Positions 8,955 through 27,548 of a stretch of DNA of 64,000 nucleotides are shown piece after piece (position 1 is the first letter of the stretch; each line of letters opens with the position of its first letter). The stretch is taken from assembly GCA_038227375.1 (NCBI GenBank), contig JBBRPY010000008.1, positions 4,178-68,177 of the forward strand. The letters are read 5' to 3'. Below the pieces are notes generated by a model. The model made no database searches. It was not told where the DNA came from and saw only the letters and a program-made list of their open reading frames with translations. This DNA comes from Dehalococcoidia bacterium (GTDB lineage Bacteria > Chloroflexota > Dehalococcoidia > DSTF01 > JACRBR01). Made by a program: the position numbers and the translations under genes.

Positions 8955-9211
8955 GGCGCACCTCCATTTGATCGAGATGGGGGCGCACGTTGCCGCGCGC
9001 CCCCGCTCAACGGCCGGACAGTCAGGGGGAGCATCTGCCGTCAAGCCGGACGGAACTAGCGTAGACCGTCGGGCGTTCGAATCAGGAAACGGGTTGTGAC
9101 GCGGGCGTTGCGTTCGCATCGCAAGAGGGCGCGCCGAATGCGGGCGGGAATCCTGTGTTCGGCGGACGCCAGCCTGTACCCTGTAGCGCGCGCCGGTGGC
9201 TGGCCCACGGT

Positions 9212-9229
9212 TGCGCATTGCAATACGCA
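9212..9229. promoter_or_regulatory. Imperfect palindrome TGCGCATTGCAATACGCA (core ATTGCAAT) upstream of thiolase start; candidate repressor operator
   Basis: 16 of 18 positions are self-complementary. It lies 18 nt upstream of the thiolase GTG and overlaps the expected promoter/RBS region. Confidence 0.3.
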
Positions 9230-9246
9230 CCTGAGGAGGTATCGAC

Positions 9247-10551
9247 GTGGAATTGAGGAACGTGGTCCTGGTCGACGGCGTGCGCTCGGCGTTCGGACGC
9301 GGCGGCAGAGGCAGCCTGGTGGCGACGCGGCTGGATAACGCGGGCGCGACCGTCTTGCGCGCGCTGATGGAACGCAATCCGAAGGTCGATCCGTGGCTCG
9401 TCGAGGACATTGGCCTGGGCAACGTGATGGGCGCTGGCGAACTGATCCTGATCGGCGCGAACAACGTGGCGCACCTGGCGGGGCTTCCCGCCGAGGTCTG
9501 CTCCTTCGATACGAACCGGCAGTGCGGTTCCAGCATGGAGACGCTGCACCGCGTCGCGCAGTCGATCATGGTCGGCGCGACCGATTGCGGCATCGCGCTC
9601 GGCATCGAGCGGATGGGGCGATCGCTGGCGGGCGGCCCGAGCGGCCCGAAGACGCGCGTCACCGAGTTCAACAAGCAGCTGCCGCAGATGAACGAGATGC
9701 AGCGCAACATGGCCCCGGACCACAACACGATCTTCTCCGTCCCATTCCCGGACGCGATCCTCGACGCTTCGCCGATCACTTCGATGACGCAGACGGCGCA
9801 AAACGTCGCCGAGGTGTACGGCCTCTCGCGTGAGGAGATGGACCAGTTCTCGGTCGAGAGCCACCGCAAGACGGCTGCCGCCTACGACAAGGGCATCTAC
9901 AAGGACGAGGTGATCCCTCTCGAAGTGGAGACCCCGGTCTTCGACGACAAGGGAAACTGGCTGCCGGAGGAACACGGCAAGCAGATCGTCTTCGACCGCG
10001 ATGAGTGCGTGCGGCCGGGCACCAACATGGAGACGCTCGGCCAACTCAAGCCGGTCGGCGGCATCCAGAGCTTCAGCGGCGAAGAGCTGCGGATCACCGC
10101 CGGCAACTCGTGCCCGACGAACGACGGCATCTCCGCCGCGCTGCTGATGAGCGAAGACAAGGCGCGCGAGCTCGGCCTGAAGCCGCTGGCGCGGATCATC
10201 GGCATGGGCGTCGCTGGCGTGAAGCCGCAGGTCATGGGCCTCGGCCCGATCCCCGCGACGAAGAAGGCGCTGCGTCACGCGGGCATCGACGCGGGCGAGA
10301 TCGACCGTGTCGAATTCAACGAAGCGTTCGCCGCACAGGTGATCCCGTCGTGCCGCGAGCTGGGCATCTCGATGGACCGGGTGAACGTCAACGGCGGTTC
10401 GATCGCGATCGGCCACCCGCTGGGCGCAACCGGCGCGCGGCTGGTATCGACGGTTGCACACGAACTGCGGCGCTCCGGGAAGCGCTACGGCCTCGCGACG
10501 CAGTGCATCGGCGTCGGCATGGGCATCTCGACGATCATCGAGGCCGTGTAG
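9247..10551 (+). CDS. acetyl-CoA C-acyltransferase (thiolase)
   Basis: GTG start after GAGGAGG. Thiolase motifs are present (NRQCGSS active-site Cys region and the C-terminal GGSIAIGHPLGATG and CIGVGMG). Confidence 0.9.
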   Translation: MELRNVVLVDGVRSAFGRGGRGSLVATRLDNAGATVLRALMERNPKVDPWLVEDIGLGNVMGAGELILIGANNVAHLAGLPAEVCSFDTNRQCGSSMETLHRVAQSIMVGATDCGIALGIERMGRSLAGGPSGPKTRVTEFNKQLPQMNEMQRNMAPDHNTIFSVPFPDAILDASPITSMTQTAQNVAEVYGLSREEMDQFSVESHRKTAAAYDKGIYKDEVIPLEVETPVFDDKGNWLPEEHGKQIVFDRDECVRPGTNMETLGQLKPVGGIQSFSGEELRITAGNSCPTNDGISAALLMSEDKARELGLKPLARIIGMGVAGVKPQVMGLGPIPATKKALRHAGIDAGEIDRVEFNEAFAAQVIPSCRELGISMDRVNVNGGSIAIGHPLGATGARLVSTVAHELRRSGKRYGLATQCIGVGMGISTIIEAV

Positions 10552-10585
10552 CCGGCCGAGGCGGGCCGGAGGGAGGGACTGCCCG

Positions 10586-11707
10586 ATGACGATAGAGCAT
10601 GACACGTCGACTGCTGCGCCCGTGCCGACGGGCGTGGCGCTGACCGCGCTCGATCCGGAGTTCCAGCGCGAGCCAGACGCGCGTCTCGACGTGCTGCGCG
10701 AGCGCGAGCCGGTGCATCACGATCAGGTGCTGCAGCGCTGGCTGATCGCCCGCCACGACGACGTCGACGCATTGCTGCGCGACCGCTCGCTGTCGGCGGA
10801 CCCGCGCAACGGCCGGCCGGGTACGTTCATGGCGGCATTCGTGGCTCCCGATGGGCGCGAGCCGAGCATCCTGTTTCTCGATGCGCCCGAGCACGACCGC
10901 CTGCGCGGTCTGGTGTCGAAGGCGTTCACGCCGCGGGCAATCGAACAGATGGCACCGCGAATTCAGGAGATTGTCGACGACCTGCTCGACCGCGTCGCGC
11001 CGGCGGATGGCTTCGATCTCATCGAGGACTTCGCGGGCCCGCTCCCGACGATCGTCATCGCCGAGATGCTCGGCGTCGACCCCGCCGACCGGCGCGATTT
11101 CAAGCGCTGGTCCGACGATGGTGTGATGGCGTTCGACCCGTTGCTGAGCGATGAGATGAAGGAGCGCGTGGTCGCATCGAGTGCCGAGCTCGACGCGTAC
11201 TTCCGGCGGGCGATCGCCGAGCGCCGCTCCCATCCACGCGACGACCTGATCTCGTCGCTGATCGCCGTCGAAGAGGGCGGCGTGCGGCTGACCGACGAAG
11301 AGATCGTGACGATGTGCGGGTTGCTGCTCGCGGCGGGCAACGTGACGACGACGGACCTCATCGGCAACGGCGTGCGCGCGTTGCTCGAACATCGCGATCA
11401 GTTCGAGCTGCTACGTGCCGATCCGTCGCTGATAAAGAACGCGGTCGAGGAGATGCTGCGCTACGACAGCCCCGTCACCGAGACCGGCCGCATCCCGTTG
11501 AGCGACGTGGCGATCCGTGGGTGCCCGATGGCAAGCGGCGATTCGCTGGTGCCGATCCTGGGCGCCGCGAATCATGACCCCGACGTGTATCCGGAGCCGC
11601 ATCGGTTCGACATTGCGCGGGCGGACACCCATCACCACTCGTTCGGTGGAGGCATCCACTTCTGCCTGGGGGCGCCGCTGGCGCGGCTGGAGGCGCAGCT
11701 GCCGTAA
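10586..11707 (+). CDS. cytochrome P450, N-terminal 373 aa including the heme-binding loop; reading frame breaks at ~11701
   Basis: ATG at 10586 follows GGAGGGAGGGA. The heme ligand motif FGGGIHFCLG is present. A stop follows only 12 codons after the Cys ligand, where the family normally continues ~50 aa. Confidence 0.75.
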   Translation: MTIEHDTSTAAPVPTGVALTALDPEFQREPDARLDVLREREPVHHDQVLQRWLIARHDDVDALLRDRSLSADPRNGRPGTFMAAFVAPDGREPSILFLDAPEHDRLRGLVSKAFTPRAIEQMAPRIQEIVDDLLDRVAPADGFDLIEDFAGPLPTIVIAEMLGVDPADRRDFKRWSDDGVMAFDPLLSDEMKERVVASSAELDAYFRRAIAERRSHPRDDLISSLIAVEEGGVRLTDEEIVTMCGLLLAAGNVTTTDLIGNGVRALLEHRDQFELLRADPSLIKNAVEEMLRYDSPVTETGRIPLSDVAIRGCPMASGDSLVPILGAANHDPDVYPEPHRFDIARADTHHHSFGGGIHFCLGAPLARLEAQLP

Positions 11708-17058: not shown

Positions 17059-17555
17059 CAGAGCACTTCCTGCAGGCCAATCTCGCTCGGCGCCGTCTTC
17101 GCAACGGAGAGATGCACAATCTCCGTGTCTGGCACGAGTTCCGCTGCATCAAGCGCGACCGCCTTGCGATGGCATTCATTCGGATCGCCTTCACTGCACA
17201 ACAAACAGACGGCTGTGCTGCCTCCCGCGCGCATCAGCCGAACGACCTCGGCGAGTCCGTCCGTCCATTCGTCCGTGGACCGCAGGTGACCGACGATGAT
17301 CGGATCGAGCCGCCCTTGCTTCCACCGGCGCGCCACTTCCGGATCCTGGGGCACGCCGCCAAGACGATCGCCGAGGAAGCGATACCGCATGCCGGCCTGC
17401 TCAATCGCCGTCTGCAGCGGGTTCTGATCGAACTGCAGCAGCCGGCTTCGTGGCTTGCTCCGTACGTCCACGACCACCTCGATGGCGCTGGCCATCAGCT
17501 TGTCGATGAGTGCCGGCAGTTCCACCACGCTGTGGCCGATCGTGTACAGCTTCAC
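17055..17555 (-). CDS. DUF488 domain protein
   Basis: The GTG start at 17555 overlaps the stop of the upstream DUF488 gene (GTGA). DUF488 signatures LYTIGHS, VVDVRSKPRSR and LLCSEGDPNECHR are present. The longer ATG-initiated ORF in the track (17609) would overlap the upstream gene by 58 nt. Confidence 0.65.
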   Translation of the reverse strand: MKLYTIGHSVVELPALIDKLMASAIEVVVDVRSKPRSRLLQFDQNPLQTAIEQAGMRYRFLGDRLGGVPQDPEVARRWKQGRLDPIIVGHLRSTDEWTDGLAEVVRLMRAGGSTAVCLLCSEGDPNECHRKAVALDAAELVPDTEIVHLSVAKTAPSEIGLQEVLW

Positions 17556-17917
17556 GCTTGCACCGCCATCTCCGCCTCGACGAGCTCCCGCAGCAGACGG
17601 CGATGGCACTCCGCTTCATCCTTGCACGCGCAGAGCAGGGTCACCGTCTCGGCGCGGGACTGGCGGGCCAGCGCTGCGATCTCCTCGCGTTGGTCCGCGC
17701 CGCGCATCTCTTGCAGGAAACGCACTTCGTACTCCGACCAGGCGATCACGCCATCCTTGAATGCGCGCAGCAACGGCCGCGACGGCGCGAGCACACGCTT
17801 GTACAGCCCCGCGCGCTCGCGGGAGACGCCTCGCGGCCAGTAGTTCGTCACCAGCATGCGGACGCCGTCGTCGGGTGATGCTTCTTCGTAGATGCTCTTG
17901 CTCCGGATACTCATCAC
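17552..17917 (-). CDS. DUF488 domain protein, YeaO-like
   Basis: MLVTNYWPRGVSRE...LLCACKDEAECHRRLL matches the YeaO/DUF488 pattern. It lies 52 nt downstream of the mfd stop on the same strand. Confidence 0.7.
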   Translation of the reverse strand: MMSIRSKSIYEEASPDDGVRMLVTNYWPRGVSRERAGLYKRVLAPSRPLLRAFKDGVIAWSEYEVRFLQEMRGADQREEIAALARQSRAETVTLLCACKDEAECHRRLLRELVEAEMAVQA

Positions 17918-17969: not shown

Positions 17970-20900
17970 TCATCGAGCCGTGACCGCGGTCTTCGCTCCC
18001 GCTGCGACTAGCAGAACGCGCTCCAGCACCGCCCGCCATTCGCCTCGCGCCGCCTCCAGGTCGATCCGCAGCTGGGCGTGGCCGACGGTGACGCCGCCCC
18101 CGCGCTCGAGAACCACGCGTTCCGACGCCGGCATCTCTGTCTGGAAGTCGATGCCATCGACCGCCCGCAGCAACAGCATCGGCTGGCCGCCAGGCGCCTC
18201 TTCGCGCGCGATTGAAGCGACGTGCGCGCGCTTCGCCAGCGCCCGCAGTTTCACGATGTACAGCAGGTTTCGTACCGGCGTCGGCGGTGCGCCGAAGCGG
18301 TCGCCCAGCTCGCGCTCGAGATCAGCAGCTACATCCGGGGCGTCGGCGTCTTGCGGCGCCGCGCCGTCGCCCGGCGATCTGCCGCGGAGCGCCGCGCCGT
18401 CGCCGGCCGCGGCCATGCGCTGGTAGAGCGAGAGCCGCAGGTTCAGGTCGCCGATGTAGCTCTCCGGGATGAACGCGGCGAGTGGCACGTCGATGACGAC
18501 CGGTGGCTGGATGAATGACGGCGGCGGTGGCTCCCCTTTTGCCAGCGCCTTCAGCCCCTCGACGGCGTCGGCGAGCAGTTTCACATACAGGTCGAACCCG
18601 ACGGTGACGATCTGCCCGCTCTGCTCCGCGCCCAGCAGGTTGCCGGCGCCGCGAATCTCCAGATCCCGGAGCGCGATCTGGAATCCGGCCCCCAGTTCGG
18701 TCGCCTCGAAGATGGTCTGTAGCCGCTTCTGCGCGACTTCGCTCAGCGCGTGGTGCTTCTCGTACAGCAGATACGCCGACGCGCGCGCAGCGCCGCGGCC
18801 GACGCGGCCGCGTAGCTGGTAGAGCTGGGCGAGCCCGAACTTGTCGGCGTTATTGATAATGATCGTGTTCACGTTAGGGATGTCCAGCCCTGATTCGATG
18901 ATCGTCGTGCAGACGAGCACGTCAGCCTTCGCCTCCGTGAAGTCGAGCATCACCTTCTCGAGCTGATCCTCCGGCATCTGTCCGTGTCCGATGAGGACGT
19001 CGGCGTCCGGCACAATATCGCGCAGCTTGCGCGCGACCAGCCCGATGTTGTGGACACGGTTGTGCACGAAGTACGCCTGCCCGCCGCGCTCCAGCTCGCG
19101 CGTGATCGCTTCGCGTACGAGATGGTCATCGAATTCGCTGACGTACGTCTTGATCGGCAGGCGCTCCTCCGGCGGCGTCTCGATCGTCGACATGTCTCGG
19201 ATGCCGGTGAGCGCCATGTTGAGCGTCCGCGGAATCGGCGTCGCCGTCAGCGTCAGCACGTCGACCTGCGCGCGCATGCGCTTGAGCCGCTCCTTGTGGG
19301 CGACGCCGAACCGCTGCTCTTCATCGATGATGATCAGGCCGAGGTTCTTGAAGGCGACATCCTTCTGCAGGAGGCGGTGGGTGCCGATCACGATGTCGAC
19401 GTTGCCGGTGATCGCATCGGCAGCGACGCGGCGCTGTTCGCGGTCGCTGCGAAAGCGCGAGAGCATCTCCACTTTCACCGGGAAGCCGCCAAGGCGTTGC
19501 TTGAAGGTGTTGAAGTGCTGTTGGGCGAGCACGGTAGTCGGCACGAGGATCGCCACCTGCATGCCCTCCATCACGGCCTTGAACGCCGCGCGCACCGCCA
19601 CCTCGGTCTTCCCATAGCCGACGTCACCGCACACCAGGCGGTCCATCGGCCGCGCCTCTTCCATGTCGTGTTTGACGTCGCTGATCGCGCGCGCCTGGTC
19701 GGGCGTCTCGACATACGGGAACGAGGCCTCAAGCTCGGCCTGCCAGGCGCTGTCCGGCGGAAATGCATGCCCCTCCGCCACCTCGCGCGAGGCGTAGAGC
19801 TGCAGCAGCTCCTGCGCCAGCTCTTGCACGGCACGGCGCACCCGCGCCTTCGCCCGCGGCCATTCCTGCGATCCGAGCCTGGTCAGCGACGGCCGGTGCT
19901 CGCTCGGGCCGACGTAGCGGCTGACGCGGTCCACTTGCTCGCTGGGCACGAAGAGGCGGTCGCCGTCGGCGTAGTGCAGCTCCAGATACTCGCGCTCCTG
20001 CCCATCGACGCCTTTCCGCGCGAGTCCGGCGAACTTCGCGATGCCGTGCTCGATGTGGACGACGTACTCACCCGGCGCCAGGTCGGCGAGAAAGCTCTCC
20101 CGCGCGGCGCCACGCCGGGGCGGCGCGCGGCGTTGCTTGCTGAAGCCGAACACCTCGGCGTCCGTGAGCAGCGTCAGCCCTGCGCCGTCCTCACCGAGGC
20201 TCCAGCCGTGCGGCAGCGAGCCGTGCAGGATGGTCAGCGCGCCCCGGCCGAGCTCGGGCTCCGTCACCCTGTCGGCAGTGCGCGCGAAGATGTCGTGCTC
20301 TTCGAGAAGCTCCGTCAGCCGCTGCGACTGCGTCGAGACGACCATCACCTGCTGCCCGCGCCGGAGCATCGGCGTCAGCTCTTCCGCGAGCGCGCGCAGG
20401 CGTCCGCCGTACGCCGCGACGGGGCCGAAGGGAAGCCGCACGACGGCGCCGCCGGCCGCATCCTCTGGCGACGGCGATTCCATGTCGCCCGTCGCCCAGC
20501 GCGAGAGGCTCAGGCGCTGTCCGTGCGCGTCGAGCGCGCGCCGAAGCTCCGGCTCCAGGAGATGGGGCTCCGGCATGCCGTGCGGCAGCTCGCCGCGCGA
20601 TTCCAGCTCGCGCCGGGCGTCGCGCGCCTGCTCGTCGTGCTCGCGCTGCACCGCCGTCACATCAGCCGGCTCGTCGACGATGATCAGCGCGTCCTCAGGC
20701 AAATGTTCAAGGAGCAGTCCGGAGGCCAGAAACGGCGTGTAGAGCTCCCAGATGAGATCGCCTGCTTCGTCGCGCACGGACTCGCCGTCCGCAAGCGCGC
20801 CGGCGTCGCGCTCGAAGCGCTCTCGCTGCTCCCCGCGCAGGCCGCCCATCTGCATCTGCTCCGCGAGATGGCGCATGCGGGCGGCGTCGGCGATCAGCTC

Positions 20901-21623
20901 GCGCGCCGGGCCGATGCGCACGCGATCGAGCAGCTCGCGCGATCGTTGTGTCGCCGGATCGAACGAACGGATGCTCTCGATGTCGTCGCCGAACCACTCG
21001 ATGCGCAGCGGCGCGTCTTCGGCAGGCGGCCAGACGTCGACGATGCCGCCTCTACGGCTCGCTTCGCCCGGCACGGAGACCTGCGGCCCGATGCGAAAGG
21101 CGCCGTTGTCGAGCGCGCGCAGCAGCTCCTGCTGCGGCATCTTCCCGCCGACGGCGAGCGCGATGCTCGCGCGCGCGAGTTCGTCGGGCGACAGCGTGCG
21201 CTGTGTGATCGCGGCCGCGCAGGCGACGATGATCGGCGGCGGACTCCCGTCGGGCGCCACCGCATGCTGGGCGAGCGCATCGAGCGCCTGGAGCCGCGCG
21301 GCGACATCGTCGGCGTCCGCGCAGAGTAGCTCATAGGGGAGAGCGTCGCGTTCCGGGAAGAGCAGCACCCGATGGCGATGCTCGTCGCCGAGCCAAGCCG
21401 CCAGCTCGTCGGCGAGCGCGTCGGCGTGCTGGGGCCGGGGGACGATGACGAGAATGGGCGCCGTGGCCTCGACCGCCAGCGCGGCAAGGACGGCCGCTTT
21501 CGCGCCGTCGCTGACGCCGAGCATCAGTGGCGGCGCGCCCGCGGCTCGGTCGGACATGCGGCGGCGGAGGCGATCGACGCCGACCGTCTCGTCCACGACA
21601 GGCAGCAGGGCCGAAAGATCCAT
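17970..21623 (-). CDS. mfd: transcription-repair coupling factor Mfd
   Basis: 1217 aa protein with CarD-like/RNAP-interaction, UvrB-homology, DEAD/DEAH superfamily-2 helicase motifs (GDVGYGKTEVA, DEEQRFG) and TRCF C-terminal domain. Confidence 0.95.
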   Translation of the reverse strand: MDLSALLPVVDETVGVDRLRRRMSDRAAGAPPLMLGVSDGAKAAVLAALAVEATAPILVIVPRPQHADALADELAAWLGDEHRHRVLLFPERDALPYELLCADADDVAARLQALDALAQHAVAPDGSPPPIIVACAAAITQRTLSPDELARASIALAVGGKMPQQELLRALDNGAFRIGPQVSVPGEASRRGGIVDVWPPAEDAPLRIEWFGDDIESIRSFDPATQRSRELLDRVRIGPARELIADAARMRHLAEQMQMGGLRGEQRERFERDAGALADGESVRDEAGDLIWELYTPFLASGLLLEHLPEDALIIVDEPADVTAVQREHDEQARDARRELESRGELPHGMPEPHLLEPELRRALDAHGQRLSLSRWATGDMESPSPEDAAGGAVVRLPFGPVAAYGGRLRALAEELTPMLRRGQQVMVVSTQSQRLTELLEEHDIFARTADRVTEPELGRGALTILHGSLPHGWSLGEDGAGLTLLTDAEVFGFSKQRRAPPRRGAARESFLADLAPGEYVVHIEHGIAKFAGLARKGVDGQEREYLELHYADGDRLFVPSEQVDRVSRYVGPSEHRPSLTRLGSQEWPRAKARVRRAVQELAQELLQLYASREVAEGHAFPPDSAWQAELEASFPYVETPDQARAISDVKHDMEEARPMDRLVCGDVGYGKTEVAVRAAFKAVMEGMQVAILVPTTVLAQQHFNTFKQRLGGFPVKVEMLSRFRSDREQRRVAADAITGNVDIVIGTHRLLQKDVAFKNLGLIIIDEEQRFGVAHKERLKRMRAQVDVLTLTATPIPRTLNMALTGIRDMSTIETPPEERLPIKTYVSEFDDHLVREAITRELERGGQAYFVHNRVHNIGLVARKLRDIVPDADVLIGHGQMPEDQLEKVMLDFTEAKADVLVCTTIIESGLDIPNVNTIIINNADKFGLAQLYQLRGRVGRGAARASAYLLYEKHHALSEVAQKRLQTIFEATELGAGFQIALRDLEIRGAGNLLGAEQSGQIVTVGFDLYVKLLADAVEGLKALAKGEPPPPSFIQPPVVIDVPLAAFIPESYIGDLNLRLSLYQRMAAAGDGAALRGRSPGDGAAPQDADAPDVAADLERELGDRFGAPPTPVRNLLYIVKLRALAKRAHVASIAREEAPGGQPMLLLRAVDGIDFQTEMPASERVVLERGGGVTVGHAQLRIDLEAARGEWRAVLERVLLVAAGAKTAVTAR

Positions 21624-21681
21624 CTCCCTCCCGAGATGCGCGGATCGATCGGAAGCACACGGCCGGGGACCATGTGCGGCG

Positions 21682-21975
21682 TCAGTCTATCAAGGCGGCG
21701 GTTGGGGGCTGGAGGTTGGAGGGTAGGACGCTCGAATGGAGGGCGCCGAACTCCTGCGCGATCGTGCGCAGCAGGCTGTACGGGACCGCGACGTAGCTCA
21801 CGCCGTTGAGCGTAAAGCGTAAGACGCTGGCATCGAGCTCGTCTTGAATGAGAAGTCTGTTTCGCGCCGACTCGTAAGCGTCCAGCGCATTGCGGGCATC
21901 AGAGTATCGGCGAGCCGTGAACCAGCCCGACGGCTCCTTCGGGCGCTCCTTGGACATTTGTAGATAGCCGGCCAA
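21682..21975 (-). CDS. small hypothetical protein (possible)
   Basis: An open frame of 97 aa between mfd and the low-GC island. No RBS is visible and there is no recognisable domain, so it may be non-coding. Confidence 0.25.
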   Translation of the reverse strand: MAGYLQMSKERPKEPSGWFTARRYSDARNALDAYESARNRLLIQDELDASVLRFTLNGVSYVAVPYSLLRTIAQEFGALHSSVLPSNLQPPTAALID

Positions 21976-22085
21976 AAGGTCGGCTAGAGCGAATTATACC
22001 ACTGTCATGATCCTCAGCGGCATCTCGAGACAACAGTCCGTCCACGGCATTGCGCTTGTTGGCCCCGGAGGTTCGACCCGAACAA

Positions 22086-23042
22086 CTATTCAGACGTGCA
22101 TTTTTTAGAAAGAGCGTAAGCACCGCCTACTGCGCCAGCTGCAGCAACAGTAGCAGCACCATAAATCCAAGGGTCTTTACTGGCATCCTTTTTAGTTTCG
22201 GTAATAGCCGGAAGCTTGGAAATATCAATTGGCTCTTCAATTCCTCCGACAGAAGTAGGTGCAAAAGATACATTATCAATAAATTCAGTTGCAAGAATCA
22301 TGTCCGAAGAACAGGATTGGTTAGTTGATCCTTGGTTTATGATTTCAATTTTAATTTTTTCCGTGCCTACAGGCCAAGCTTCTTGACCACCTGGGCCAAA
22401 AGTTCTTGTAAAGCTTTGCCATTGATTTTCTCCAACAGTAAAAGCGTAATTACTAAAATCCGATGATCCTGTTTGTGTTGTGCCTGCGGCATCATAAAAT
22501 TCAACAATTCCTAGAGGTGCAATAGTAGTGCCGGAAGCACTAAGTGTGTATTTTGCCGAAAAAGCTTCAGAATATTTCTGATTAGTGTCAACATCAACAA
22601 AGTCTGTTCTCCAACCATTTGCAAAAGGCCCGCTACCTGTTTCACAGAAATATTTGCTATCTATGGAATGAGTTCCGCTCTGTGCAACATCGTTACGGTA
22701 CTGAGCAGTCTGAAAAGAAAGTGGAGGATTAGGTTCAACATATTGCTTACTCCAGTTAGCAGGCGCTGCCGGAATTACTGTTGGCGTTTTCGCTATTTCA
22801 AATCCCCCATTTGCCGGTTGGGGTGTTTGCGCCTCTGCAACTTCTGCATCCGGAATTTTGTCGACTAAAACATCGTACGCGCTGTGTGGGAAATCTATTA
22901 CTAAGTGGCTTGCAGAATCTGCAGATTGGACAATCGGGTCGAATGCACCCGTTTGTTCTATTGCAACAGCACCCGCTGCAGTTAGTGCAACTGCCGCTGT
23001 TATCCTTGCTGCCCTATTTGGCTTTGCTCCTTCTTTGCCCAT
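22086..23042 (-). CDS. horizontally acquired surface protein: Sec signal peptide, CBM4_9/galactose-binding-like beta-sandwich (NGGFE...), C-terminal sorting-signal-like TM helix plus KK tail
   Basis: The DNA is ~40% GC, whereas the flanks are ~68%. Proposed start is ATG 23042, with alternatives at 23090 and 23105. The NGGFE motif and aromatic-rich beta-sandwich region resemble carbohydrate-binding modules. The C-terminus is DPWIYGAATVAAAGAVGGAYALSKKCTSE. Confidence 0.7.
   Translation of the reverse strand: MGKEGAKPNRAARITAAVALTAAGAVAIEQTGAFDPIVQSADSASHLVIDFPHSAYDVLVDKIPDAEVAEAQTPQPANGGFEIAKTPTVIPAAPANWSKQYVEPNPPLSFQTAQYRNDVAQSGTHSIDSKYFCETGSGPFANGWRTDFVDVDTNQKYSEAFSAKYTLSASGTTIAPLGIVEFYDAAGTTQTGSSDFSNYAFTVGENQWQSFTRTFGPGGQEAWPVGTEKIKIEIINQGSTNQSCSSDMILATEFIDNVSFAPTSVGGIEEPIDISKLPAITETKKDASKDPWIYGAATVAAAGAVGGAYALSKKCTSE
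22098..22115. repeat. Left copy of imperfect direct repeat GCATTTTT(TA)GAAAGAGC flanking the low-GC island
   Basis: It matches 23087..23103 (GCATTTTTGGAAAGAGC) at 16 positions with one 2/1-nt indel. The two copies bracket the ~1 kb low-GC segment. Confidence 0.4.
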
Positions 23043-23086
23043 GCGCGAAGGGACTGGCCTGAAGAGGGGCTGTCCTTTCGCGCCGC

Positions 23087-23103
23087 GCATTTTTGGAAAG
23101 AGC
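23087..23103. repeat. Right copy of imperfect direct repeat flanking the low-GC island
   Basis: See left copy 22098..22115. Confidence 0.4.
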
Positions 23104-23522
23104 ATCGTGTACGTGGCCCTTGTGAATCGAGCTCTGCAACATAAGCACCCATGATGGGGCTTGATGCTGACGGACCTCGCGTGCTCACCCCAGATACCCT
23201 GGGTCGCCATCGCGTGACTACCGCAAGGTGGACGATAACACGCTCGGTGGTGAGCTGTCCAGGGAGCGTGTGGCAAGAACCTTCTCGGCCAGTCTCTTGG
23301 CCCCGACGCGGGTTCCGGTGTGTCGGCCGATAGGGCTGCCTATAGGCGGGGCCAACCCGTAGCGGGCGACCGGTGGACGGTCTCGCGATGGCGCTCCTTG
23401 CAGCGAGCTTCACGAGCGCGGTCGTGTTCGTTGCGGCGGCGTCCCGGCTGAGACGCCGGCGGAGTTAGGTCGCTACTTCCGGCGAGCCCACGCACTTGCG
23501 GGTTGGCCGTGCCGCCGCTCTA

Positions 23523-23557
23523 TCCAACATCCAACATCCAACATCTAACATCCAACA
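23523..23557. repeat. Tandem heptanucleotide repeat (ATCCAAC)x5, with one ATCTAAC variant
   Basis: It is read directly from the sequence, 40 nt downstream of the efp stop. It is adjacent to a GC-rich inverted repeat (CCGCCC...GGGCGG, 23563..23588) that may act as the efp terminator. Confidence 0.8.
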
Positions 23558-23597
23558 TCGCCCGCCCCTACGGCACGGCCGCGGGCGGCACCCGCCC

Positions 23598-24155
23598 TCA
23601 GGCGCGCTCGATGTACTCGCCGGTGCTGGTGTTGACTTTGATCTGGTCGTTCTCGTTGACGAAGAGGGGCACGTTGACGACAAGCCCCGTTTCGAGCGTC
23701 GCCGGCTTCGTCGCGCCGGTGGCGGTGTCGCCCTTCACGCCCGGATCGCAGTGGGTGATCGTCAGCGTCACCGAGGCCGGCAGCTCGATGCCGATCGGCT
23801 CGTCGCCGAGAAAGAGCACCTCGCACGTGCCGTTCTCCGCCAGGAACTCCTTCGCTTCACCCACCTGGTCGGCGGTCAGCGGCACCTGGTCGAAGGTCTC
23901 GGTGTTCATGAAGTACATGATCGCGTCTTCGCTGTAGCTGAGCTGCATCGACACCCGTTCGACGCGGACGCGCGGCCACTTTTCGCCGGCCTGGAACGAC
24001 CGCTCGATGAGGTCGCCGCGCCGGACGTCGCGCAGCTTCATCCGCATCTGCGCCGAGCCGCGGCCCATCTTGATGTGATGGAACTCCATCACCTGGTACA
24101 CGCGCCCATCCAGCTCGATGGTCGCGCCGCGCTTCATATCACCCGTCGAGATCAT
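23598..24155 (-). CDS. efp: elongation factor P
   Basis: 185 aa with the conserved EF-P N-terminal KOW-like domain (GRGSAQMRMKLRDV) and OB domains; classic location downstream of pepP. Confidence 0.95.
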   Translation of the reverse strand: MISTGDMKRGATIELDGRVYQVMEFHHIKMGRGSAQMRMKLRDVRRGDLIERSFQAGEKWPRVRVERVSMQLSYSEDAIMYFMNTETFDQVPLTADQVGEAKEFLAENGTCEVLFLGDEPIGIELPASVTLTITHCDPGVKGDTATGATKPATLETGLVVNVPLFVNENDQIKVNTSTGEYIERA

Positions 24156-24229
24156 GGGAGATCGATCCTCCTGATGTGCTTGCTGCCCACCCGCAGGCTA
24201 GCGGACTCGGTTGATGCGCTCCAATGCGG

Positions 24230-25315
24230 CTAGCTGGTGAACTGGAGCTTCGGCGCCTGGCTCATCGCGCGCGCCTTGCCGTTTTGCATGACCACCATGT
24301 CTTCGATGCGCACGCCACCCCAGCCGGTGATGTAGATGCCCGGCTCGATCGTGAAGACCATGTTGTCCTTCAGCTCGTCCGTCGAGGTGCGCGCAACGCG
24401 CGGCGCCTCGTGCACTTCGAGGCCGATGCCGTGGCCGAGGCCGTGGCCGAAGGTCTCGCCGTAGCCGGCGGCGTCGATGACGTTGTGGGCGATCATGTGG
24501 CACTCGTCCCCGGTCATGCCCGGCTTCACCATCTCTTCCGCTGTCAGCTGCGCGGTGAGGACGATGTCGTAGATCTTGCGGAACTGATCGTCGGGCTGGC
24601 CGAGGAAAATGGTGCGCGTGAGGTCGGACATATACCCGTCGATCTCGCACCCCATGTCGATGACCACGCCCTCGCCGGCTTCGAGCTTGCGGTCGCGGGG
24701 GTACGCGTGCGGCATCGCGCCCCACGGCCCGCCGGCGACGATGGTGTCGAACGACAGGGCGTCGCCGCCGTGCTCGCGGATGTACTTCTCGATCTCCCAC
24801 GCCACCTGCTTCTCCGTCCAGCCCGGCTCGACCCGCTCGCTCACGGACGTGCAGGCGGCGTCGCCGAGGTCGACTGCGCGCTGTAGCGCCTCGATCTCCT
24901 CGGGCTCCTTGAAGAGCCGCAGCGACTCGACGAGATTCGGCGTCGGCACGAGCGCCGGCCGGTCCGATTCGGGGAGCGTGGCGATCGACTTCTTGAACTG
25001 CTGGTGTGTCGCGAAGGTGAGGTCATTCGCCTCGAACGCGATCTTCTTTCCCGCGAGGCCGGCGAACAACGGCGGTACCCAGGCGTCGAAGCCACCGATG
25101 GTCTTGTGCAGCCGGAACTCAGGCGCTTGTGTGCCGCTCTGCTCGTAGTAGCGGAAGTCCGTCGCGATGACGGCGTCGTCCGGCGTGATCAGCAAGTAGC
25201 CCGCTGAGCCGGTGAATCCGCTGAGGTACCGGCGGTTCTGTGCGTTGGAGATAAGCGCGCCGTCCAGCTCATGTTTCTCCAGTGCGCGGCGCAGCCGTTC
25301 GACACGGTTGGTCAT
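24230..25315 (-). CDS. pepP: Xaa-Pro aminopeptidase (M24B)
   Basis: ATG at 25315 lies 9 nt after AGGA. M24 metal ligands and motifs are present (HGLGHGIGLEVHE, GMTGDECH, the D..D pair). The arrangement aroQ-pepP-efp is conserved in many bacteria. Confidence 0.9.
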   Translation of the reverse strand: MTNRVERLRRALEKHELDGALISNAQNRRYLSGFTGSAGYLLITPDDAVIATDFRYYEQSGTQAPEFRLHKTIGGFDAWVPPLFAGLAGKKIAFEANDLTFATHQQFKKSIATLPESDRPALVPTPNLVESLRLFKEPEEIEALQRAVDLGDAACTSVSERVEPGWTEKQVAWEIEKYIREHGGDALSFDTIVAGGPWGAMPHAYPRDRKLEAGEGVVIDMGCEIDGYMSDLTRTIFLGQPDDQFRKIYDIVLTAQLTAEEMVKPGMTGDECHMIAHNVIDAAGYGETFGHGLGHGIGLEVHEAPRVARTSTDELKDNMVFTIEPGIYITGWGGVRIEDMVVMQNGKARAMSQAPKLQFTS

Positions 25316-25328
25316 CGGATCATCCTTG

Positions 25329-25685
25329 CTAACAGCAGTCGCGTGTCGCGGCACCGCCGGAGAAGAGCCCCAGAATCAGGTCCCGCGCTTCGGTCCGCCC
25401 GGTGACGCGCAGGAGTACGGCACCGTCGCGCTGCTCGGCGGCGAGGCTGAGGAACGGGCAGCACTGCGACTCAAGCTCGACGTACCGGCGGACCGCCTCC
25501 CAGGCTTCCGGCCGGAAGGTCACTTCCACGCCGTCCGGCAGCTCTCGCAGCGGCGGCACGATGCCGTGGGCGAGTTCTTCGCGGAAGCCGGAGCGCGCCA
25601 TCTCGCTCGCGATCGTGAAGTCGCACGCCAGGTCGGCGCCGGGATCAGAGGCGGGGCGATCGATCAGGGGTCGGGCATCAGTCAT
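25329..25685 (-). CDS. small Cys-containing hypothetical protein (CCPF...C-terminal CC) inserted between aroQ and pepP
   Basis: Its ATG overlaps the aroQ stop (ATGA), indicating translational coupling. It is 118 aa with no recognised family. The long track ORF 25329..26927 is trimmed to this gene. Confidence 0.5.
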   Translation of the reverse strand: MTDARPLIDRPASDPGADLACDFTIASEMARSGFREELAHGIVPPLRELPDGVEVTFRPEAWEAVRRYVELESQCCPFLSLAAEQRDGAVLLRVTGRTEARDLILGLFSGGAATRDCC

Positions 25686-26137
25686 GGGTGTCGCTCCTTT
25701 GCAATCAGCGTCGTCAGGGCCTCTACCGCAAGCAGGTACCCGTGCGTCCCCAGACCGACGATGGCGCCGGTGACGACGGGCGAGAGCAGCGACTCGTGCC
25801 GGAACTCCTCGCGCCTCCATACCTTCGAGATATGCACTTCCACGACGAGCAGGCCGCAGGCTGCGACGGCGTCGCGGAGGGCGATCGCGTAGTGGGTGAG
25901 CGCCCCGGCGTTGATGATCAGCCCATCGGCCTGGGATTGCTCCTGCTGGAGCCAGTCGATGATATCGCCCTCGCTGTTGGCCTGAAACGCGAGCACCTCG
26001 GCCCCTGCCGAGGCGGCGCGCTCGACAACGGCGGCTTCGATCTCGCCGAGCGTCATCGTGCCGTAGATGTCGGGCTCCCGGACGCCCAGCGTGTTCAGGT
26101 TCGGGCCGTTGACGAGCAGGATGCGCATGCGGGCCAT
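25682..26137 (-). CDS. aroQ: type II 3-dehydroquinate dehydratase
   Basis: RILLVNGPNLN..GVREP..YG and HISKVWRREEFRH motifs are diagnostic of AroQ. Length is ~150 aa. Confidence 0.9.
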   Translation of the reverse strand: MARMRILLVNGPNLNTLGVREPDIYGTMTLGEIEAAVVERAASAGAEVLAFQANSEGDIIDWLQQEQSQADGLIINAGALTHYAIALRDAVAACGLLVVEVHISKVWRREEFRHESLLSPVVTGAIVGLGTHGYLLAVEALTTLIAKERHP

Positions 26138-26264
26138 TGTAGCAGCGGTATGGCTGATGGGGGATCGCCACAAAGAAGGGTGCTCCCTTAGGTGCGCTTC
26201 CCAGGTGTTCCTGCCGAACACTACATGAGGGGTGTACGCCCCCTGGCCAGCGTGAGGACGGGTG

Positions 26265-27548
26265 ATGGGCGACGGCATCGAGGAAGACGCGATCGAGGCG
26301 ACGATCCGGCGAGTCGCGGCCGCCAAGGCTGCCCGTTCGGCCCCGGACTCGGAGTCGGCGGCAGAGGTCGCCGAGGCGACCCAGGGGGCCCACGGGGCCG
26401 CGACCGAGGCGCCCGACGCCGAAGCCATCCGCGCGGCCGAGGTCAACCGCGTCGAGACGATGATCCGCCGCGTCGCGAGCGCCAAGGCGGCCCGTGATAC
26501 CGAAGAGCCTGCGGTGCCCCCCGGCGAGCCAGGTGCGACGGCGGCGCCAGCGCTGACCCCCGCCGAGGAGCTCATCGAAGCGACAATCCGCCGCGTGGCT
26601 GACGCCAAAGCAGCTCAACGCCACGATCCCGGGGGCGACGACAACCCCGTGCCCGGGCCTGCGACGCCGGCTGAGGCGACGGCTTCCGGCATCCCGCCAG
26701 ATGGCGAGCCGCGCGCGGCACGGCCCGGCGCGACCGGCCGCGGCTGGCGTCCGGCCGAGCGGACCGCCATCCGGGAATCTGATACTGCAGAAGGCCGGAC
26801 CGGCGCGGCCGAACCCACCGAACCTAGGCGTCCGGCGGAGCCGAGCAGCCCGGCTGAGCGGAGACAACCGGCCGAAGCGAGCGCCTCGGTGACGCCCCCT
26901 ACCGATAGCGGGGCTGGATTCACCCACGAGGACTCGGGCCTAGCGGAGGTGGTTGCAGACTTGCGCCGCGAGCTGGACGCAACTCGAAGGTCGCTCGAAG
27001 CGCTGGTCGCGCGCGTGGACGCGATGACAGCTCCGCCCGGCGCAAGCGCGACGCTCGCCGCGCCGCCGTCGACGCCCGCGGACGAGGACTGGGATGACAC
27101 GCCGACGATCCCTCGCGTCCCGCTCGGTCAGCCGCTGCGGCCCGCGATCTTCCGCGACCCCTCGCCGCGCACGGCGACGGCGGACCAGATCGTCCTGGAG
27201 GACGACGAGGTGGTGATCGACACGCGGCCGATCCCGAAGCCGCTGCCGCCCTTGCGTGCGGAAGCGCGGCGCGGGCTGGACCTGCTGCCGCGCACCTACC
27301 GGGTGACGGTCGAAGACAAGCGTCGCGGGGTCGACCTGGTGCCATTGCACCGGGCGCTGCTGGGGATGGACGGCGTGCGCGATATGTCGCTGCTGAGCTA
27401 CAGCAACGGCGTCGCGATCGTCTCGCTCGATACCCTCGACGAACTGAGTCCCGACGCGCTCTGCGCCGCGATCGCGCGGGCGATGTCCCGAAAAGCGACG
27501 GTCGAAGCCCACAACGAGGCGATGGTCGTCAAGCTGGCAGAGGAGTAG
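26265..27548 (+). CDS. hypothetical protein with three N-terminal tandem repeats of (I/V)E(A/T)(T/M)IRRVAxAKAA(R/Q), acidic/Pro-rich middle, conserved C-terminal domain
   Basis: The repeats are conserved at the amino-acid level while differing at synonymous DNA positions (26287, 26452, 26578), which argues for real coding. GAGGA lies 5 nt before the ATG. Its stop is 11 nt before the start of the GGDEF gene. Confidence 0.55.
   Translation: MGDGIEEDAIEATIRRVAAAKAARSAPDSESAAEVAEATQGAHGAATEAPDAEAIRAAEVNRVETMIRRVASAKAARDTEEPAVPPGEPGATAAPALTPAEELIEATIRRVADAKAAQRHDPGGDDNPVPGPATPAEATASGIPPDGEPRAARPGATGRGWRPAERTAIRESDTAEGRTGAAEPTEPRRPAEPSSPAERRQPAEASASVTPPTDSGAGFTHEDSGLAEVVADLRRELDATRRSLEALVARVDAMTAPPGASATLAAPPSTPADEDWDDTPTIPRVPLGQPLRPAIFRDPSPRTATADQIVLEDDEVVIDTRPIPKPLPPLRAEARRGLDLLPRTYRVTVEDKRRGVDLVPLHRALLGMDGVRDMSLLSYSNGVAIVSLDTLDELSPDALCAAIARAMSRKATVEAHNEAMVVKLAEE

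Follow-up and report, generated by a model that had tools for sequence, protein, structure and literature searches.

Locus and Composition of the Island Gene

We analyzed a 64-kb stretch (hereafter the window, to which all coordinates refer) of contig JBBRPY010000008.1, which belongs to a metagenome-assembled genome (MAG) of a Dehalococcoidia bacterium (GCA_038227375.1). In this window, one gene of low GC content, called the island gene below, is located between the host genes efp and mfd (table 1). An earlier note on this DNA, made from the sequence without database searches, had described a low-GC block in a high-GC chromosome that held exactly one gene, lay between mfd/DUF488 and efp, and was consistent with a low-GC donor. 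The sliding GC and codon usage profile that it had proposed as a check was not uniform. GC content dips to 0.39–0.47 at 22050–22950 versus 0.62–0.75 on either side (300-nt windows). The kilobase 22001–23000 has a GC content of 0.448 and all other kilobases of the window have 0.62–0.72; outside the island the mean is 0.670 (standard deviation 0.024) and the lowest 1-kb window reaches 0.601. The block carries a single intact minus-strand open reading frame (ORF) of 318 amino acids (aa), whose stop codon occupies 22086–22088. Both the block and its single gene were thus confirmed, as were mfd and efp as its flanks, but DUF488 is found on the far side of mfd (17061–17917).

The island gene is equally foreign in its codon usage. 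The GC content at third codon positions (GC3) is 0.27 for the whole coding sequence (CDS) and 0.25–0.33 in each third of it, compared with 0.79–0.92 across all 47 host ORFs of the window and 0.87–0.92 for mfd, efp, and pepP. Its per-codon log-likelihood is −2.17 under host usage versus −1.05 under the usage of a low-GC contig bearing the same protein family (see below), and host genes score −0.6 to −0.8 under host usage. The proposed single-gene island from a low-GC donor was therefore borne out in composition.

The ATG at 23042 is the point where the N-termini of the family begin (M-[ED]-[KR]-E). The in-frame upstream extension (23043–23276), which is included in the 374-aa database call P0001, has a host-like GC content of 0.60 and lacks codon periodicity. 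Given the family start, the GC3 of the thirds, and this noncoding-like extension, the 318-aa reading is correct. Maximum-likelihood GC segmentation placed the foreign segment at 21950–23036, with support intervals of 21943–22088 (left) and 22968–23177 (right). Its edges are compatible with the ORF ends and are not resolved to the nucleotide; a claim that the limits of the foreign DNA and of the ORF agree within a few nucleotides was dropped, since these intervals are too broad for it.

Table 1. Coordinates of the island gene, its modules, and the surrounding features in the window
Feature	Position	Strand	Description
mfd, host flank	17970–21623	−	then two DUF488 genes, DuOB, an AMP-binding enzyme (acyl-CoA ligase), glyoxalase, and desaturase, in the same order as in relatives
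Junction region, unique	21624–23597		1.97 kb, efp stop to mfd start; no homology to related Chloroflexota loci
Orphan orf97, 97 aa	21682–21975	−	GC 0.62, GC3 0.78 (slightly under host genes); between island and mfd
Foreign CDS, 318 aa plus stop	22086–23042	−	GC 0.437, GC3 0.27; modular surface-protein family, mainly in low-GC (Curtissbacteria-type) contigs
C-module, residues 263–318	22089–22256	−	SVGGIEEPID 264–273, linker, DPW 290–292, helix 293–311, tail SKKCTSE
Direct repeat, left copy GCATTTTTTAGAAAGAGC	22098–22115		inside the CDS; encodes ALSKKC of the tail
Cargo domain, residues ~76–262	22257–22817	−	predicted CBM4/CBM16/CBM22 (galactose-binding-like) beta-sandwich; starts NGGFE (78–82)
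N-module, residues 1–73	22824–23042	−	basic n-region, hydrophobic 14–28, conserved DSASHLVI...AYDVLVDKIPDAEVAEAQ region
GC-rich hairpin, 17-bp arms	23043–23083		abuts the start codon; sequence unique in the window
Direct repeat, right copy GCATTTTTGGAAAGAGC	23087–23103		in host-like GC-rich DNA, 45 nt upstream of the ATG
efp, host flank	23598–24155	−	preceded by pepP

Modules and Fold of the Encoded Protein

The encoded protein consists of an N-terminal module (N-module), a cargo domain, and a C-terminal module (C-module). A likely Sec signal was recognized in the N-module, with a hydrophobic segment at residues 14–28 followed by an AVA/AxA site, in agreement with the signal peptide that had been read from the sequence before. 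Residues 9–77 are 40–60% identical to about 29 family members whose cargos are unrelated (45–60% for the N-module as delimited in table 1), and members matched via the N-module alone gave phmmer E values down to 8e-14.

The cargo domain is predicted to be a beta-sandwich like those of carbohydrate-binding modules (CBMs). In an AlphaFold2 model built from a 13-sequence subfamily alignment, the beta-sandwich core (residues ~125–262) has predicted local distance difference test (pLDDT) values of 80–96. Foldseek against the PDB matched a CBM16 structure (2zex, E 2.7e-7, target TM-score 0.69–0.71) as well as CBM4 (1gui, 1k42) and CBM22 (4xup) structures, so the CBM-like beta-sandwich proposed in the earlier note was borne out at the level of the fold. 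Compared with CBM4, CBM9, CBM16, and CBM22 modules, the domain is alike in structure (Foldseek probability 1.0, E 2.7e-7 to 1e-4, target TM-score up to 0.71) and opens with the N-x-x-F-E strand typical of them; however, identity is 10–18%, and neither the Pfam CBM_4_9 model nor any PDB sequence matches it. Weaker Foldseek matches were obtained to other proteins that use the same fold, including Stig cyclases, phage tail-spike domains, and MAM domains. The residues F81, P94, W97, W208, G216, P224, C244, and D256 are invariant in the cargo subfamily. From the modeled fold we infer that the cargo may bind glycans.

Curated databases recognized little of this protein. Pfam returned no match at E ≤ 1 except a spurious one to CsgH, and nothing usable was obtained from NCBIfam, PADLOC, PHROGs, or the PDB-sequence search. 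PF02018 (CBM_4_9) matched one of 41 family members (E 0.0033) and did not match the island protein. The anticipated BLAST/Pfam matches to CBM4_9 in Firmicutes or Bacteroidetes were absent, and the relatives proved to be an uncurated family in low-GC contigs.

In the C-module, V265, G266, and G267 of SVGGIEEPID are invariant in the family alignment, and the P of DPW alone aligns with the family's conserved Pro. The 19-residue hydrophobic helix is followed by the tail, in which KK takes the place of the family's RRxR; motif and helix are 27 residues apart.

A Modular Protein Family in Low-GC Contigs

The family to which the island protein belongs was defined in this analysis; it is uncurated and has no qualifying Pfam or NCBIfam match. 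A word-indexed search of 5.8 billion proteins gave two matches, the protein itself and one partial relative. Searches of this kind reach two to six relatives, and the family becomes visible only with an exhaustive HMMER search, which found 51 proteins among 1.84 billion cluster representatives sharing the N-module, the C-module, or the cargo. The family itself, absent from both Pfam and NCBIfam, is unusual.

Two modules recur in the family. The N-module (~80 residues) has the consensus MEREGRGENFVNKKRLNIVARSVAAISIAAAGAAAVEK-G-FDPL---VDSANHLVL--LH-SYEQLIDKLPEVEKAEA and comprises a basic n-region, a hydrophobic segment up to an AxA-like site, and a further conserved stretch with AEA(Q) at its end. 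Its pattern (M-[ED]-[KR]-E..., the hydrophobic segment, and DSA[NS]HLVL...AY[ED]QL[IV]DKLP..E.AEA) is also that of the island protein. The C-module (~55 residues) begins with [SG]VGG[IV]AExP[DN], continues with 19–29 residues (often LPQNxxSEKxxDxT) and P-I-A-A-G leading into a hydrophobic helix, and ends in a basic tail RRxRS; the island protein has the corresponding SVGGIEEPID, helix, and basic tail. We recognized the N-module in 29 of 54 family sequences, the C-module in 39, and both modules in 21.

The cargos between these modules were diverse. Beta-sandwich relatives of the island cargo include P0003 (40% identical), P0004, P0005, P0009, P0013, and others. HExxH metalloprotease-like domains occur in P0007 and P0012, a different beta-rich domain occurs in P0002, P0011, and P0014, and further members carry small Cys-rich domains. 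P0046 may carry a serine-protease cargo, judging from its sequence and from weak matches in the family to serine-protease models (the matching member was not specified). Varied cargos on constant N- and C-modules suggest a polymorphic cell-surface toolkit, plausibly one that mediates cell–cell contact; such a use would agree with the epibiotic lifestyle that has been proposed for the Candidate Phyla Radiation (CPR).

Two contigs showed further family-type arrangements. On the Curtissbacteria contig Ga0209541_10000046 (10001–10796), the family gene is split into an N-module ORF of 142 aa and a separate C-module ORF of 87 aa (GVGGIAKLAD...RRNRSAK), and probably represents a frameshifted or decaying paralogue. 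On contig L002, two surface-protein genes stand side by side (15–635 and 712–1878). The upstream one contains the end of the P0002 cargo domain (LDANVDAFTIGLSG.DTTFDFEPD) and four Cys-containing repeats (C..NGW..F.NP.F.NQG.C) and lacks a C-module; a sortase gene and a gene for a PEGA-domain protein are found within 4 kb.

The genomic context of the family was investigated in ten contigs. Nine of them have 37–46% GC (given as L002, L083–L092, L096, and L098) and the tenth (L097) has 66% GC. The family genes in the low-GC contigs have GC3 values of 0.27–0.41, matching the 0.27 of the island gene. Exact-sequence look-ups tied three low-GC contigs to Candidatus Curtissbacteria (Microgenomates/Microgenomatia, CPR/Patescibacteria). 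The TypA of L091 is identical to proteins of Ca. Curtissbacteria RIFCSPLOWO2_01_FULL_41_28 and Microgenomates GW2011_GWC1_40_35, the LytB of L083 shares a 90% cluster with Ca. Curtissbacteria KKR50169.1, and the UvrC-like protein of L092 is identical to Ca. Curtissbacteria OGE10861.1. The island copy lies on a 67%-GC Chloroflexota contig, unlike the low-GC Curtissbacteria/Microgenomatia setting of the family, although its own GC3 does fit the family.

Neither a homologue of the island gene nor a comparable low-GC island was found in about 80 related Chloroflexota loci. The strict motif [VL]GG[IV][ASD][EQ]xP[DNEQ] is likewise absent from these loci and from the window, where SVGGIEEPID differs at one position and escapes the pattern. 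Viral contigs scanned with the protein and an N-module profile contained no relative, and phage carriage is unsupported.

The high-GC contig L097 (JGI 3300048083, contig Ga0496027_0000113) carries two tandem genes with a beta-sandwich and a C-module (9101–10849; P0029 and P0045), in which plain signal peptides replace the N-module. Their intermediate GC3 (0.67–0.71 versus 0.84–0.88 for the neighboring genes) suggests that another GC-rich bacterium acquired the pair earlier and that amelioration has since advanced in part. In a taxonomic look-up, the contig had neither named cluster members nor a similarity to the window that was informative.

These distributions also bear on a native origin, in which a Chloroflexota gene of aberrant composition would, for example, belong to an old family shared with CPR and be kept AT-rich by selection. 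CPR have been placed sister to Chloroflexota and Dormibacterota (PMC12102498), and the presence of family members in the 66%-GC contig would also be in line with such an origin. Yet the GC3 of the island gene equals that of its CPR homologues and is 0.5–0.65 under that of every host gene, and the related loci contain no homologue. Moreover, the island gene is the sole sequence in a 67%-GC context in the searches of 5.8 billion proteins and 1.84 billion representatives, and the copies in L097 are compositionally atypical for their own contig. A native origin is thus extremely unlikely.

C-Terminal Module and Known Sorting Signals

Judged from its sequence, the C-terminus of the island protein is a sorting-signal-like module composed of a motif, a transmembrane (TM) helix, and a basic tail. 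The earlier note had taken DPW, the hydrophobic stretch, and KKCTSE for a sorting signal resembling those of exosortase/archaeosortase substrates. The sorting-signal-like character stands, but DPW is not the motif, because only its P is conserved; conservation is found instead in SVGGI(A/E)ExP(D), about 25 residues before the TM helix, and in a Pro at the helix entrance. NCBIfam sorting-domain models were scanned with the island protein at E ≤ 10 and with 41 family members at E ≤ 0.1. The island protein matched no exosortase, archaeosortase, rhombosortase, or sortase sorting-domain model, and the proposed exosortase/archaeosortase resemblance was not supported. Family members gave sub-threshold matches of helix and tail to LPXTG, LAETG, LAVTG, and GVDTG anchor models. 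On these scans the C-module (SVGGIAExPD ... P-x-A-A-G, TM helix, RRxR) is captured by no curated sorting-signal model.

The module shares with sortase signals (LPXTG and LAXTG/LAETG/LAVTG; TIGR01167, NF041528, and NF058582) the order of motif, helix of about 19 residues, and basic tail, and residues 293–311 of the island protein are hydrophobic and followed by a positively charged tail, as in sortase substrates. It differs from them in lacking an LPXTG/LAXTG-like pentapeptide; the family motif S-V-G-G-I-A-E-x-P-D is located 19–29 residues before the helix instead of adjoining it. All family matches to these models are below the curated cut-offs and outside the motif positions, and the island protein has none. 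The best family score against an LPXTG-type model was 14.3 bits (cut-off 15.9) and covered profile positions 9–33 only.

GVDTG_CTERM (NF058571) was the best-matching curated model, with matches in 16 of the 41 family members (best E 2e-4), and GGVD(T/E/Q) is present in some family motifs (e.g., SLGGVDTDPN in P0050 and SLGGVDEQPD in P0045). However, the family scores are 7–22 bits (maximum 21.6) against a cut-off of 29, the matches mostly cover profile positions 17–44 and at most 11–44, never the motif end, and the island protein does not match. A literature search on the GVDTG motif and model returned nothing relevant. With PEP-CTERM/exosortase, PGF-CTERM/archaeosortase, and GlyGly-CTERM/rhombosortase systems the module has in common the motif–TM–basic logic and, in the family motif, Gly-Gly; in contrast to them, the family motif is far from the helix, and no model of these types matched. 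MYXO-CTERM gave a chance-level match in P0045 (11.5 bits, cut-off 20). No exosortase, archaeosortase, or rhombosortase was seen in any locus, although no dedicated search was made, and none was present among ten Pfam-scanned flanking ORFs of the window.

A sortase gene with a TLxTC-type motif (LVLQTC) is located 1 kb from the family member P0002 on contig L002, and tblastn with this sortase found nothing in the window. Sortases have been reported to be near-ubiquitous in Microgenomates and present in Chloroflexi (PMC6744442). Considering this distribution, the gene near P0002, and the weak helix and tail matches to anchor models, a sortase would be the best candidate for the sorting enzyme.

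Host Flanks and the Synteny Break

The EF-P of the window is 83–94% identical to EF-P of 17 Chloroflexota/Dehalococcoidia MAGs from soil and groundwater, and its Mfd is 72–81% identical to Chloroflexota/Dehalococcoidia MAG proteins. Therefore, both flanks belong to the same high-GC Chloroflexota clade. The pepP–efp pair is kept in 16 of the 17 close relatives, and the remaining locus could not be judged. In 11 of the 17, efp is followed by xseA, directly downstream in ten, where xseB and a formyltransferase-like gene usually come next, and further off and inverted in one (L011). The other six have something other than xseA after efp, and for this reason the efp boundary is considered naturally unstable in this clade. 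Three relatives looked up via mfd have the order pth–(small variable ORFs)–mfd–DUF488–DUF488–..., and in the window efp occupies the place of pth upstream of mfd. Neither pth nor xseA/xseB was found anywhere in the window. The joining of efp to mfd and the absence of pth and xseAB point to a large-scale rearrangement or deletion with its breakpoint at the island.

Homology to the relatives, both nucleotide and translated, is lost at 21631, 8 nt before mfd starts, and is regained at about 23580–23600, at the efp stop. The unique region between these points consists of a 555-nt GC-rich spacer (23043–23597), the foreign CDS, a 110-nt spacer, and orf97. The earlier note did not mention orf97, for which Pfam, NCBIfam, PADLOC, and PHROGs gave no match and more than 80 related loci no homologue. 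The comparison of the orthologous mfd–efp interval that had been proposed gave a divided result: the gene is absent in the relatives, but a clean empty site could not be defined, because mfd and efp are never neighbors there.

The contig SRR19962015_1088505 of the Logan assemblies (3516 bp) is the same as 20037–23552 of the window except for one synonymous difference (Ser275, TCC/TCT). Both island junctions were thus independently assembled, and the Ser275 transition is population-type variation within the island.

A chimeric contig is the main rival explanation, since this is a MAG contig whose synteny breaks at the very position of the insert. A Curtissbacteria-like fragment would then have been mis-joined between two Chloroflexota contigs (pepP–efp and orf97–mfd). 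Such an artefact would explain why the foreign block is situated exactly where synteny with all relatives breaks (efp–xseA in 11 of 17; pth–mfd in the three looked up) and why the 1.97-kb junction region has no homologue in them; moreover, the sequence belongs to a MAG, and groundwater and soil samples of the same kinds have yielded both CPR and Chloroflexota MAGs. Nevertheless, it needs two independent false joins, each no more than about 100 nt from an end of a complete ORF that has the same strand as the flanking genes. A De Bruijn chimera also requires shared k-mers between genomes of 40% and 67% GC (27 points apart) at both joins, and the independent Logan assembly reproduces both junctions with one synonymous polymorphism. 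The natural instability of the efp boundary also counts against an artefact, and the partly ameliorated members in the second high-GC contig indicate that such transfers occur. We therefore consider a chimera unlikely. If it were one, the contig would be a warning that MAG contigs can be chimeric at single-gene scale.

Several side observations were made on the flanks. Upstream of mfd, different small ORFs occur in the relatives (67–92 aa, including one UPF0175). In one relative (L003, 14407–16431), a conserved host protein of 674 aa combines a lamin-tail-like region with two NG(S/N)FE-type CBM-like domains and has its own C-terminal TM helix with a basic tail. It has counterparts in nine relatives (listed as L006–L009, L011, and L013–L015) and none in the window, and it stands beside the efp–xseA–xseB cluster in 8 of the 10 loci having it. 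The host clade thus has its own GC-rich CBM-like surface proteins, which are unrelated in sequence to the island gene. In the window, a plus-strand ORF at 26262–27548 would encode 428 aa rich in Ala, Pro, and Glu with three copies of an IEATIRRVAxAKAA-like motif. The stretch around it has a GC content of 0.72–0.76, the AT skew reaches +0.36 at 26250–27000, and it overlaps opposite-strand ORFs (aroQ-like, 25682–26608).

Direct Repeat, Leader Hairpin, and Expression

An imperfect direct repeat of 17–18 nt had been described as bracketing the block and as a mark of insertion. Its two copies exist at their coordinates (table 1), but they are not positioned at the compositional junctions. The left copy is foreign coding sequence, and the right copy is cut off from the AT-rich block by the 41-nt GC-rich hairpin, so the repeat does not explain the insertion. 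Its gapped local score (12.5) was attained in 0.05% of shuffles and in 1.05% of real pairs of 101-nt windows 1 kb apart, which makes it rarer than chance, for test zones that were picked after the finding was seen. No further copy exists in the window.

The tRNA scan of the whole window found none, and no Rfam family matched at 21000–24500. Among ten Pfam-scanned flanking host genes (P450, desaturase, glyoxalase, acyl-CoA ligase, DuOB, two DUF488, GGDEF, a TIM-barrel protein, and PIG-L), there was no integrase, transposase, or recombinase; mfd, efp, and pepP likewise belong to ordinary housekeeping or metabolic families. The earlier statement that no integrase or tRNA is adjacent was correct.

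These data were considered for a mobile-element or site-specific insertion marked by the repeat, whether the repeat is read as a target-site duplication or as the trace of a circle that integrated in Campbell fashion at a short att-like site. The repeat is real, rare by the scores above, and found nowhere else in the window. However, its left copy belongs to the AT-rich foreign CDS and is not a duplicated host target, which excludes a target-site duplication, and 44 nt of ~70%-GC DNA with the host-like hairpin separate the right copy from the AT-rich block, so that the DNA between the copies is not all donor-like, against the Campbell model. Both forms of integration at the repeat were rejected on these grounds. 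An inverted-repeat end is absent, no tRNA exists, the scanned flanking genes include no mobility gene, and the test zones were chosen post hoc. An insertion of this kind is very unlikely.

The hairpin has consequences for expression. The predicted mRNA leader (23010–23115, minus strand) folds with −44 kcal/mol (z = −5.0), and none of 200 shuffles was as stable. In this fold, the ATG and codons 2–6 are paired, including the only Shine–Dalgarno-like GAAGGAG, and the right repeat copy pairs with codons 2–6. No Shine–Dalgarno sequence was found upstream of the ATG, and the only promoter-like match upstream of the gene was a weak one (23261–23232). Considering the codon mismatch, the lack of a Shine–Dalgarno sequence, and the start codon in a stable hairpin, the island gene is probably poorly expressed or silent in its Chloroflexota recipient. 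On the plus strand, CGCGCATTTTTGG follows the hairpin, which therefore resembles a terminator of a plus-strand transcript that no longer exists.

Origin and Meaning of the Island Gene

Taken together, we consider it probable that a complete Curtissbacteria-like gene was very recently inserted by illegitimate recombination into a 67%-GC Chloroflexota chromosome. The arrival must be very recent, because amelioration is wholly absent. The donor would be a Curtissbacteria-like bacterium (Microgenomatia, CPR/Patescibacteria) of about 40% GC, and the recipient a soil or groundwater Chloroflexota in which the insertion point is also the rearrangement junction joining efp to mfd. The foreign DNA may have been captured during illegitimate (end-joining-like) repair, a mechanism that fits the position at a rearrangement junction and the lack of a mobility signature. 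In its native lineage, the N-terminal leader, a Sec-type signal plus a region of about 45 residues ending AEAQ, would take the protein across the membrane, and cleavage may follow, either behind the signal peptide or within the conserved AEA|Q. The variable cargo would then be displayed, here as a CBM4/16/22-like beta-sandwich that is probably a glycan-binding adhesin. The C-module would keep the protein on the cell, either as a plain type-I anchor in the membrane or because a sorting enzyme processes it.

Several points weigh against a recent transfer or narrow it. The insert is placed exactly at a synteny break, and the efp–mfd adjacency exists in no relative, as a mis-join would look; the record is a MAG contig. 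No close donor was found; P0003, the best homologue, is only 40% identical, which means that the source lineage proper has yet to be sampled. Nothing convincing at the junctions accounts for the insertion, nor does any mobility gene or tRNA, and the broad GC change-points leave the exact extent of the foreign DNA unfixed. A sortase stands beside a family gene in one of the nine low-GC family contigs searched (L002; L098 was outside this search), and the window yielded none. That the protein binds glycans, is displayed at the surface, and is served by a sorting enzyme are predictions.

Compared with horizontally acquired genomic islands, the locus is alike in its sharp GC and codon anomaly and its surface-protein cargo; the gene is also missing from about 80 related loci, none of which has the efp–mfd site itself. 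It differs in that it comprises one gene (about 1 kb), carries hardly any donor flank, and lacks an integrase, tRNA, or target-site duplication, and in its CPR donor lineage, Chloroflexota recipient, and rearrangement-junction site. The near-exact single-gene extent without mobility signatures, at such a junction, is unusual.

Horizontal transfer itself is ordinary; what is unusual here is the donor–recipient pair, since the recipient chromosome is that of a free-living-type Chloroflexota and the CPR gene within it is completely unameliorated. A real linkage would directly document that DNA passed recently from a presumably epibiotic, ultra-small bacterium to another phylum. It also reveals a small uncurated family with cargos that include CBM-like lectins, an HExxH metalloprotease-like domain, a possible serine protease, and Cys-rich domains, and the C-module is a candidate for a new sorting signal or for a new sortase-type variant. 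The linkage would further be a lead to the unknown hosts of Microgenomatia. To our knowledge, no host is known for Curtissbacteria; a literature search found none, and nothing relevant on associations between Curtissbacteria and Chloroflexi.

A more far-reaching and rather improbable idea is that the gene is the footprint of physical episymbiosis, in which a Curtissbacteria-like CPR epibiont lived on this Chloroflexota, its DNA was captured at a repaired chromosome break, the captured gene codes for one of its polymorphic surface adhesins, and the family serves as a host-contact toolkit with an undescribed sorting signal. If this were true, hosts could be assigned to uncultured CPR lineages by means of their unameliorated genes in chromosomes outside the CPR.

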